From positions 1,700-65,699 of the forward strand of contig NZ_DAHUXJ010000068.1 of assembly GCF_027307225.1 (NCBI RefSeq): 64,000 nt of DNA, written 5' to 3'. Of the stretch, positions 30,263-32,377 are shown piece by piece. The position numbers and the translations under genes were made by a program. The number at the start of each line of letters is the position of its first letter. Position 1 is the first letter of the stretch. Origin of the DNA: Bradyrhizobium sp. (GTDB lineage Bacteria > Pseudomonadota > Alphaproteobacteria > Rhizobiales > Xanthobacteraceae). Under the pieces are notes generated by a model that saw nothing but the letters and a program-made list of their open reading frames with translations, was not told the DNA's origin and did not search any database.

Positions 30263-32377
30263 ATGAACATCCGCTCCAATCCCGACACGACCCTTCCCGC
30301 CGTGACCACGGGCCCGTTGCCCTCCTCGCGCAAGATCTTCTCCACGCCCGATGCGGCGAGCGATCTGCGCGTACCCTTGCGCGAGATCATTCTCTCCGAA
30401 GGTGCGGGCGAGCCAAACCTGCCCGTCTATGACACCTCCGGTCCCTATACCGACCCCAGCGTCGTGATCGACGTCAACAAAGGCCTGGCCCGCGCTCGCA
30501 CCGCCTGGGTTAAGGAGCGCGGCGGCGTCGAGGAATATCAGGGGCGCAGCATCAAGCCGGAAGACAACGGTAATGTCGGCACCGCGCACGCCGCCAAGGC
30601 CTTCACCGCGCATCACCAGCCGCTGCGCGGCCTCGATGCTTCCGTTCCCTCCCCCCGCGATCTTAGCTCCCCTCCCCCTTGTGGGGAGGGGTCGGGGGTG
30701 GGGGTGGTCGCAAGCGCTGCTGTTCAAGGTTACCCCCCTCCCCAACCCTCCCCCACAAGGGGGGAGGGAGTTGGAGAGACGGGAGGGGAACAGAGAGGCC
30801 TCGCATGGTCGCGCGGACCTGGCCATCCGCCAATGGTAACGCAGCTTGAATTCGCCCGCGCCGGGATCATCACCAAGGAAATGATCTACGTGGCGACGCG
30901 CGAAAACCTCGGCCGCAAGCAACAGCTCGAGCGCGCGGAAGCAGCTCTAGCCGACGGCGAAAGCTTTGGCGCCGCGGTGGCGGCCTTCATCACGCCGGAG
31001 TTCGTGCGCTCCGAGATCGCGCGTGGTCGCGCGATTATCCCCTCCAACATCAACCACGGCGAACTCGAGCCGATGATCATCGGCCGCAACTTCCTGACCA
31101 AGATCAACGCCAATATCGGCAACTCGGCGGTGACCTCGTCGGTGGAAGAGGAAGTCGACAAGATGGTGTGGGCGATCCGCTGGGGCGCCGACACCGTGAT
31201 GGACCTCTCGACCGGGCGCAACATCCACACCACGCGCGAATGGATCCTGCGCAATTCGCCGGTGCCGATCGGCACGGTGCCGATCTATCAGGCGCTGGAG
31301 AAGTGCGACGGAGATCCCGTCAAGCTGACATGGGAGCTCTACAAGGACACGCTGATCGAACAATGCGAACAGGGCGTCGACTACTTCACGATCCATGCCG
31401 GCGTGCGCCTGCCCTACATCCACCTTACGGCCAACCGCGTCACCGGCATCGTCTCGCGCGGCGGCTCGATCATGGCGAAGTGGTGCCTGGCGCATCACAA
31501 GGAGAGCTTCCTGTACACCCATTTCGACGAGATCTGCGACCTGATGCGCAAATACGATGTGTCGTTCTCATTGGGCGACGGATTGCGTCCGGGCTCGATT
31601 GCGGACGCCAACGACCGCGCGCAATTCGCCGAACTGGAAACGCTCGGCGAACTCACCAAGATTGCGTGGGACAAGGGCTGCCAGGTCATGATCGAAGGCC
31701 CCGGCCATGTGCCGATGCACAAGATCAAGATCAACATGGACAAGCAGCTCAAGGAATGCGGCGAGGCGCCGTTCTACACGCTTGGCCCGCTGACCACCGA
31801 CATCGCGCCGGGCTACGACCACATCACCTCGGGCATCGGCGCTGCCATGATTGGCTGGTTCGGCTGCGCGATGCTGTGTTACGTGACGCCGAAGGAACAT
31901 CTGGGCCTCCCCGACCGCAACGACGTCAAGACCGGCGTGATCACCTACAAGATCTCGGCGCACGCCTCCGACCTTGCGAAGGGCCACCCGGCGGCACAAC
32001 TGCGCGACGATGCGCTGTCACGCGCGCGCTTCGACTTCCGCTGGGAGGACCAGTTCAACCTCGGCCTTGATCCCGAAACGGCGTGCAAATTCCACGACGA
32101 AACGCTGCCGAAGGAAGCGCACAAGGTGGCGCATTTCTGCTCGATGTGCGGCCCAAAGTTCTGCTCGATGAAGATCACGCAGGACGTGCGCGACTATGCG
32201 GCGACGCTCAATGATCCGGCTGGCATTGGCCAGCCTCATCCTGAGGAGGCGCGCAGCGCCGTCTCGAAGGATGAAGCGGAGAAAGGCATGGCGCAGATGA
32301 GCGCCAAGTTCAAGGAGATGGGCGCCAACGTCTATCTCGATGCGGACAAGGTGAAGGACAGCAACAAGGTGTTGTGA
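30263..32377 (+). CDS. thiC: Phosphomethylpyrimidine synthase ThiC with two in-frame repeat insertions
   Basis: AAGGAGG RBS; [47 protein letters not shown] Fe-S motif; 704 aa. Confidence 0.97.
30644..30793. repeat. Nested CCCTCCCC palindromic repeat in frame within thiC
   Basis: Outer GTTCCCTCCC / GGGAGGGGAAC and inner CCCTCCCCCTTGTGGGG / CCCCACAAGGGGGGAGGG stems. Confidence 0.88.
32234..32274. repeat. CCTCATCCTGAGGAG...GTCTCGAAGGATGA unit in frame near the thiC 3' end
   Basis: Near-identical to the intergenic unit at 46183-46222; translated as [14 protein letters not shown]. Confidence 0.85.

Follow-up and report, generated by a model that had tools for sequence, protein, structure and literature searches.

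An in-frame copy of a dispersed palindromic repeat in the ThiC linker of Bradyrhizobium, probably a tolerated selfish insertion

How did extra DNA come to lie within the coding sequence of a thiC gene in Bradyrhizobium, and what does it do to the radical-SAM enzyme that this gene encodes? The gene belongs to a stretch of 64,000 nucleotides, analysed as a whole and called here the window, in which the thiamine pathway context is intact around the insert-bearing copy (table 1). A sequence-only reading of the locus had proposed that a member of a palindromic repeat family entered thiC in frame, as one element nested within another, and that the enzyme kept its catalytic motifs. The comparative data reported here lead us to view the insert as a tolerated selfish repeat that is read through as a linker loop, with a probability of roughly 0.8.

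Table 1. Features of the thiC locus and of the repeat family in the window
Feature	Position	Strand	Evidence or remark
TPP riboswitch	27251..27421	+	RF00059, 67.1 bits (gathering score 54.3); head of the thiO-thiS-thiG-thiE-thiC operon
thiO (DAO)	27409-28425	+	Thiamine operon, 3' of the TPP riboswitch
thiS	Between thiO and thiG	+	Thiamine operon
thiG (ThiG)	28743-29546	+	Thiamine operon
thiE (TMP-TENI)	29515-30138	+	Thiamine operon, of which thiC is the last gene
thiC coding sequence	30263..32377	+	704 aa from ATG 30263; frame open from 30140 (stop to stop)
Main in-frame insert, 183 nt / 61 codons (A126..P186)	30638..30820	+	Flank mapping; junction alignments with 23 same-genus genomes
Outer left arm GTTCCCTCCCC	30644..30654	+	Common to element termini of sister species; alignment columns 31-37 conserved in 9/9 species
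Inner canonical family element	30667..30770	+	Two 39-nt inverted arms around a 26-nt loop
Four consecutive G-runs fitting the G-quadruplex consensus	30683..30704	+	Regular-expression match only; C-rich mirror at 30733-30754
Outer right arm GGGAGGGGAAC	30781..30791	+	Degraded copy GGCAGCGGAAC in G018
Non-palindromic tail	30792..30820	+	Single occurrence in the genome; homologous in Bradyrhizobium and Rhodopseudomonas insert alleles
Extra CCGCCA (Pro-Pro)	30827..30832	+	Separates the ancestral GH codons from M(I/V); accompanies the insert allele
Intergenic family member	14483..14623		Profile from genome copies, E = 1.9e-8
Weak half-length family member	19421..19497		Profile from genome copies, E = 7e-5
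Intergenic family member	38752..38928		Profile from genome copies, E = 5e-21

The extent of the insertion was measured against orthologs with an empty site. We searched the ThiC sequence against 40 relatives and then against 400 genomes of the genus. A match was obtained in 380 genomes, and in about 370 of them it consists of two adjacent pieces, one covering residues 1-126 of the query and the other running from residue 191 onward; about 97% of the genus is without the insert. The 23 same-genus junctions that we read out have the sequence ...CCG CTG CGC GGC CTC GAC GGC CAC AAG/ATG ATC ACG..., encoding PLRGLD-GH(K/M)I-TQLEF, and place the breakpoint of this clean empty site at CTCGAC/GGCCAC. 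The two flanks are 10-13 nt apart at these junctions versus 202 nt in the present gene. Outgroup families also have a short ThiC linker, which indicates that the short form is ancestral. The extra residues predicted in the linker are present, but their number had been underestimated: the additional DNA totals 189 nt (63 codons) and not about 150 nt. The interval singled out from the sequence, 30644-30793, is as described and coincides exactly with the palindromic portion of the insert. When the genome was searched with the insert as query, the tail (query positions 144-202) had no other match. Full-length insert alleles and the remnant found in G241 end with ..PPM(I/V)TQLEF and the allele of G367 with ..SPMI, whereas empty alleles read GH(K/M)ITQLEF. 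Four low-scoring thiC matches considered as other inserts (G211, G219, G239, and G259) are single-base frameshifts, most likely assembly errors.

Within the protein, the insert lies in the linker between the Pfam domains ThiC-associated (ORF residues 59-131) and ThiC_Rad_SAM (ORF residues 234-681), the domain layout of ThiC being described in PMC4389238. The site maps between about residues 115 and 129 of Caulobacter ThiC, and the alignment with plant ThiC structures starts only at query residue 244, so that the insert occupies a region absent from some ThiCs. ThiC homologs begin with MNIRSNPD, and the thiC ORF runs without a stop across the insert. Positions 1-419 of the 420 of PF01964 (ThiC_Rad_SAM) are covered (E = 2.7e-183), the C-terminal CX2CX4C cluster motif is present as CSMCGPKFC, and the core aligns with Caulobacter ThiC (3epm) with an E value of 1.5e-261 and two short gaps of 4 and 18 residues. 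These data bear out the proposal that frame and catalytic motifs are preserved. Since no stop codon interrupts the thiC frame within the insert, whose length is a multiple of three, the extra DNA would be transcribed and translated with the gene. Proline, glycine, serine, alanine, and glutamate make up 66% of the insert peptide, and this composition, together with the position in the linker, suggests that the roughly 63 added residues, rich in Pro, Gly, and Ser, probably form a floppy, disordered surface loop that would leave catalysis unaffected. An AlphaFold2 model of the 704-aa protein, computed with a 32-sequence alignment of insert-bearing homologs, had a mean pLDDT of 33.6, too low for a structural reading.

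The inserted DNA is a member of a dispersed repeat family. Starting from the thiC insert, a search by nhmmer in three rounds identified 81 loci of this CCCTCCCC/GGGGAGGG family in the source genome (G000), a 5.6-Mb draft in 160 contigs. The motif CCCTCCCC-N(2-12)-GGGGAGGG occurs four times in the window and never in shuffled sequences. The kinship suspected between the thiC insert and copies placed at 14489, 19383, and 38757 holds, since a profile built from the genome copies recovers all three, the one near 19383 as a weak half copy only. Family units are composite, about 120-200 nt long, and bounded by terminal inverted repeats. Their usual ends are ..CTTATCCCTCCCC-TTGC-GGGGAGGG.. and ..CCCTCCCC-GCAA-GGGGGAGGGATAAG.., and the termini of the 32 full-length copies read ..TTATCCCTCCCC / GGGGAGGGATAA... 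Inspected by eye, these 32 copies, whose ends are defined only by the profile, show no consistent direct repeat indicative of a target-site duplication; a short GGCC is found at both junctions of the thiC insert in G296 and G099 only. No Rfam family corresponds to this repeat. Among the 81 loci, one copy is clearly genic and two are possibly so, most other ORFs that appear to span copies being spurious overlapping frames. The family is not unusually stop-free, as 45% of the frames across its copies are open against 46% for random genomic segments of matching lengths.

Two palindromic layers make up the thiC copy. In the inner one, the 39-nt arms (30667-30705 and 30732-30770) are 82% complementary, and each contains a small CCCTCCCC-loop-GGGGAGGG hairpin (30669-30677/30683-30691 and 30746-30754/30760-30768); the family profile matches it over 30659-30777 with an E value of 6.5e-28. 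The outer arms lie at about 30641-30654 and 30781-30794. The sequence GTTCCCTCCCC also opens the element in all other carriers, where the ends are GGGGAGGGGAAC in G296, G099, G291, and G313 and GGGGAG(C) in G018, G367, G327, and G049. As the inner layer is a complete family member and the outer one matches the termini found in sister species, both layers are real, although the entry of one element into another, while plausible, is not proven. G000 has kept the older element ends at 30644-30654 and 30781-30791, enclosing a second complete unit, and homologs show the inner layer alone (P0003), both layers (P0004), or the outer layer alone (G018). The insert may thus represent a canonical copy lodged within the remnant of an older resident one; a symmetric duplication of the arms would give a similar two-layer pattern.

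Ten Bradyrhizobium species carry the insert, nine in full and the tenth, G241, as a remnant with the tail. The ten inserts, with lengths of 189, 162, 174, 174, 141, 159, 135, 183, 156, and 60 nt, are open without exception, and each length is divisible by three. A protein collection search limited to the insert region retrieved 37 clusters with an insert in public data. Close orthologs do not possess the same loop without a palindrome: the short palindrome-free loops of G241, P0024, and P0028 retain the locus-specific tail and are deletion derivatives. When the nine full-length inserts are aligned, the codon phase of G000 over the homologous core (columns 61-182) is shifted by one from that of the other eight, and G000 has returned to the common phase by column 208. 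Relative to its near relative G018, it differs by a 22-nt indel on the left and a 5-nt indel on the right, 27 nt together. The eight other species encode the core peptide VPSPLAGEGQGGGS..., and the homologous DNA of G000 encodes a different one. As the same core DNA is read in two codon phases, the sequences indicate that purifying selection preserves the reading frame of the insert and not its amino-acid sequence; acting on the downstream enzyme, it would keep the insert open and in frame.

These lengths also bear on whether the insert could be an intron- or intein-like intervening sequence, a lesion that makes thiC a pseudogene, or an assembly artefact. Divisibility by three in all ten alleles argues against a spliced-out RNA segment, since splicing would not require it. 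No intron or other Rfam family scored above threshold on the insert, which in a scan of 26000-33500 attracted only sub-threshold matches to generic hairpins (miRNA). An intein would have to be longer than 63 residues, and the insert has no intein-like junction residues. A damaged gene would accord poorly with the open frame and full-length core match, or with the fact that thiC is single-copy, being the genome's only match of ThiC length, and belongs to an operon that is otherwise complete and under riboswitch control. The same allele recurs in assemblies made independently, one of them the complete genome CP000301. All three possibilities are thus very improbable.

Another reading is selection on the nucleic acid itself. 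Folding of the RNA from 30630 to 30810 gave -115.3 kcal/mol versus -87.6 +/- 4.7 for shuffled sequences (z = -5.87; 0 of 200 shuffles as good), and the minimum free energy in the nine species with a full-length allele ranges from -104 to -141 kcal/mol. A palindrome that is strongly foldable in all nine could mean that DNA or RNA structure is selected: the hairpin, or a G-quadruplex competing with it, would have been co-opted to modulate the translation rate between modules, mRNA stability, or local recombination, and would be kept for its structure. This would fit the conservation of the fold over a peptide that is unconserved and even read in another phase, the two-sided changes at four pairs (e.g., three species have T-A in place of C-G at alignment columns 69/166), the G-quadruplex pattern match at 30683-30704, and the persistence of the allele across Bradyrhizobium and Rhodopseudomonas. 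However, palindromy and two-sided changes are also expected if the insert is replaced or converted by other family copies, and the 39-nt arm is shared across genera. The palindrome is mostly or half deleted in G241, P0024, P0028, and R. palustris DX-1, where thiC is still open, and the structure is dispensable in the 97% or so of the genus that lacks it. A scan in and around the insert found no match to terminator or promoter consensus sequences. Selection for structure is in our opinion unlikely.

The origin of the allele can be traced beyond the genus. The ThiCs of Rhodopseudomonas palustris BisB18 (CP000301), of strain DX-1, and of other Rhodopseudomonas contain the insert together with the extra Pro-Pro and a tail homologous at the DNA level. 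The tail peptide reads ERGIAW(A/S)RGPGHPPM in Bradyrhizobium and QGIAYACGPHLPPM in BisB18, and the underlying DNA can be aligned. Tail and Pro-Pro being common to the alleles of both genera, these alleles have one origin, and the insert allele, shared with Rhodopseudomonas, appears to be old. In a Xanthobacteraceae MAG of another genus (GCA_035517135.1), a family copy likewise occupies this position in the ThiC linker. As this copy is without the tail and has different flanks, it represents an independent insertion at an equivalent position. Its sequence is identical to the G000 inner left arm over 39/39 nt and differs from the right arm by one base. A ThiC related to that of the MAG, P0029, contains two family copies in tandem.

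Within Bradyrhizobium, carriers are scattered. On the thiC flank tree, they need at least eight state changes and their monophyly is rejected (lnL difference 350, p-AU 1e-5). On the rpoB tree, for which the gene set is incomplete (several MAGs are without the gene) and the outgroup branch very long, five changes are needed and monophyly is again rejected (p-AU 7e-7); carriers fall mostly in an early-branching grade with non-carriers interspersed. Both tests reject a single clade of carriers, and simple neutral vertical descent is therefore insufficient. A short imported tract around the insert was likewise rejected, as the 90 nt on each side follow the sequence of each clade. Two features within the insert recur across different flank clades: the hairpin loop SEAS(K/E)ARS and the tail in its shortened form, found in G367 and G049. 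No simple deletion that would turn an insert allele into the observed empty allele was found, and G311 and G409, considered as GHPP-type excision intermediates, have ordinary short linkers. Our best guess is that insert alleles may have been exchanged by homologous recombination.

An element still active, for which the thiC linker would be a favored target of repeated, site-specific, and reversible insertion and excision, would also produce the numerous state changes of the two trees, flanks that follow their own clade up to the junction, and the separate insertion that another genus has at this point of the linker. Such activity is nevertheless quite improbable: the tail and the Pro-Pro shared by Bradyrhizobium and Rhodopseudomonas carriers are not part of the repeat family and point to one origin, target-site duplications are not evident to the eye at family copies, none of the four Y1_Tnp transposase loci of the draft genome lies near a copy, and the allele predicted for excision, GLDGHPPMI, is absent from the genomes read out. 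It is conceivable, though we doubt it, that the thiC linker is a preferred landing or exchange site for hairpin repeats and that the insert allele is a long-lived polymorphism crossing species and genera, which recombination, or selection for the hairpin or G-quadruplex in the mRNA, would maintain. This would explain at once the scattered carriers, the retention of the structure over an unconserved peptide, and the occurrence of repeats at one and the same site in unrelated lineages. Translation might then be paced between the ThiC modules, or thiC expression tuned beyond the riboswitch.

We favor the view of a tolerated selfish insertion. A member of a dispersed palindromic family with G/C tracts, REP- or MITE-like, has entered the DNA for the short linker between the accessory N-terminal domain and the catalytic core and is presumably neutral for its carriers. 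It would then have been altered by the loss of internal segments, by duplication of its arms or nesting, and probably by exchange with family copies elsewhere.

By the features compared, this family is not a member of any named one. In-frame palindromic repeats or MITEs in genes are established, as in the Rickettsia palindromic elements (RPEs), the Coxiella QMITE1, and intragenic ERIC (PMC10969869; PMC5896051). The parallel with RPEs that had been drawn for this locus is apt as an analogy and not as family membership. As summarized in PMC10969869, RPEs (Ogata et al.) are dispersed palindromes of roughly 100-150 bp found in frame in unrelated housekeeping genes and read through, at positions of the peptide judged compatible with fold and function. 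The thiC repeat is similarly palindromic, in frame, and open through the gene. Unlike RPEs, which are found in the obligate intracellular Rickettsia, it resides in a free-living Bradyrhizobium, and its sequence is the G/C-tract CCCTCCCC/GGGGAGGG. Nearly half of the RPEs are genic, compared with the one clear and two possible copies of this family. RPEs are also said to encode a conserved peptide, whereas here the peptide is unconserved and the DNA read in two phases. Rickettsia provides the best-known examples of selfish DNA within protein genes. The thiC case adds a radical-SAM enzyme and alphaproteobacteria of free-living habit, from soil and phototrophic. Its comparative record is unusually clear, comprising an empty site, ten orthologous carriers, a switch of codon phase, and the separate arrival of a family copy at the equivalent position in another genus. 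The insert explains the odd lengths (660-727 aa) of ThiC annotations in Bradyrhizobium and Rhodopseudomonas and designates the linker between N-domain and core as a permissive insertion site, useful for tagging. The scattered allele offers a small, tractable case of insert alleles that may move between bacterial species by recombination.

Like the REP, BIME, and REPIN sequences associated with RAYT (TnpA_REP) (PMC3733652; PMC3184786), the family consists of G+C-rich imperfect palindromes in many copies, mostly extragenic and often composite or nested. Unlike them, its termini, ..CTTATCCCTCCCC / GGGGAGGGATAAG.., are without the GTAG or CGTC tag (PMC3733652), which is absent from the ends of the 32 full-length copies, and its units of 120-200 nt exceed the 20-40 bp of classic REPs. 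No cognate RAYT was found next to the family: the four Y1_Tnp loci of G000 are at least 5.3 kb from the nearest copy, with no CCCTCCCC/GGGGAGGG motif within 600 nt of them, in a search that is not exhaustive given the draft state of the 160-contig genome. With the MITEs of Coxiella (QMITE1), intragenic ERIC, and the Anabaena MITEs (PMC5896051; PMC10969869), the family shares a length of 100-200 nt with terminal inverted repeats, the lack of coding capacity of its own, and occasional in-frame fusion to host ORFs; it may differ from MITEs in that no target-site duplication is evident to the eye at its copies.

A comparison by host is with Br-REP1 and Br-REP2 (Hahn et al. 2016; PMC5082802), dispersed palindromes that occupy spacers and 3' UTRs in the same genera. 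The excerpt of that report on which we rely places them in intergenic regions and 3'-UTRs and does not mention an in-frame genic copy. They belong to a different sequence family. The only match in the window to the Br-REP1 consensus CCGGAATCTCGAGATTCCGG, with up to three mismatches allowed, is at 30194-30213, in the thiE-thiC spacer and outside the insert.

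The spacer between thiE and thiC is occupied by a unit of Br-REP1, a published Bradyrhizobium/Rhodopseudomonas repeat (PMC5082802) distinct in sequence family from the thiC linker insert. Its core matches the published consensus CCGGAATCTCGAGATTCCGG exactly and carries GTCATTCCGGGATGGT / ACCATCCCGGAATGAC on its flanks. The unit ends immediately upstream of the thiC ribosome-binding site (AAGGAGG). Read stop to stop, the thiC frame stays open across the whole unit, which would lead an ORF caller astray to a 745-aa product.

A second short palindromic repeat, unrelated to that of the linker insert, lies in frame close to the 3' end of thiC, past the Fe-S motif. 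It is identical at approximately 36 of 41 positions to an intergenic copy, and the same segment is found in the ThiC of another Bradyrhizobium (public homolog P0035). At this position, the loop is shorter or different in the same-genus genome G018 and in most homologs. The thiS-thiG spacer holds a further repeat type, with the translations ..PAFAGMTT.. and ..IPAKAGIQ.., and the thiamine operon therefore contains at least four kinds of repeats in a span of 5 kb. Elsewhere in the window, a 191-codon frame gives a weak match to Y1_Tnp, the RAYT/IS200-like transposase domain (27.5 bits); no copy of the CCCTCCCC family, the dispersed family of the linker insert, adjoins this match.

Two other loci of this genome may extend the genic occurrences of the CCCTCCCC family. 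A weak family-like copy, L043, is in frame within a 1242-aa ORF for a DnaE-type DNA polymerase III alpha subunit and may represent a second in-frame genic copy. It covers residues 924-962 of the ORF, with the finger domain on one side and a truncated match to HHH_6 on the other. Another copy, L044, occupies residues 929-950 of the 1018-codon stop-to-stop frame of uvrB. As it lies downstream of the UVR motif in an open frame, UvrB may possess a repeat-derived C-terminal extension.

Features of the window and candidate genic family copies
Feature	Location	Remark
thiS-thiG spacer with further repeat type	window 28620-28742	
thiE-thiC spacer with Br-REP1 unit	window 30140-30262	
Br-REP1 core	window 30194-30213	
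3'-end thiC repeat	window 32234-32274	
Intergenic copy of 3'-end thiC repeat	window 46183-46222	
Y1_Tnp match	window 60724-61056	minus strand
L043	contig C100:19267-19380	profile score 19.7
L044	contig C28:40297-40360	inside open uvrB frame

Single-base frameshifts interrupt thiC near residues 222-240 in four same-genus genomes of good quality in other respects (G259, G211, G219, and G239; loci L054 and L056-L058). They look like long-read assembly indel errors rather than genuinely split genes. In the genome G241 (loci L040 and L045), thiC clusters with those of G291 and G054, whereas rpoB, which contains two in-frame TGA codons, groups with that of G001 (support 100/99). This discordance, together with the TGA codons, points to gene transfer, errors in the assembly, or a bin of chimeric origin.
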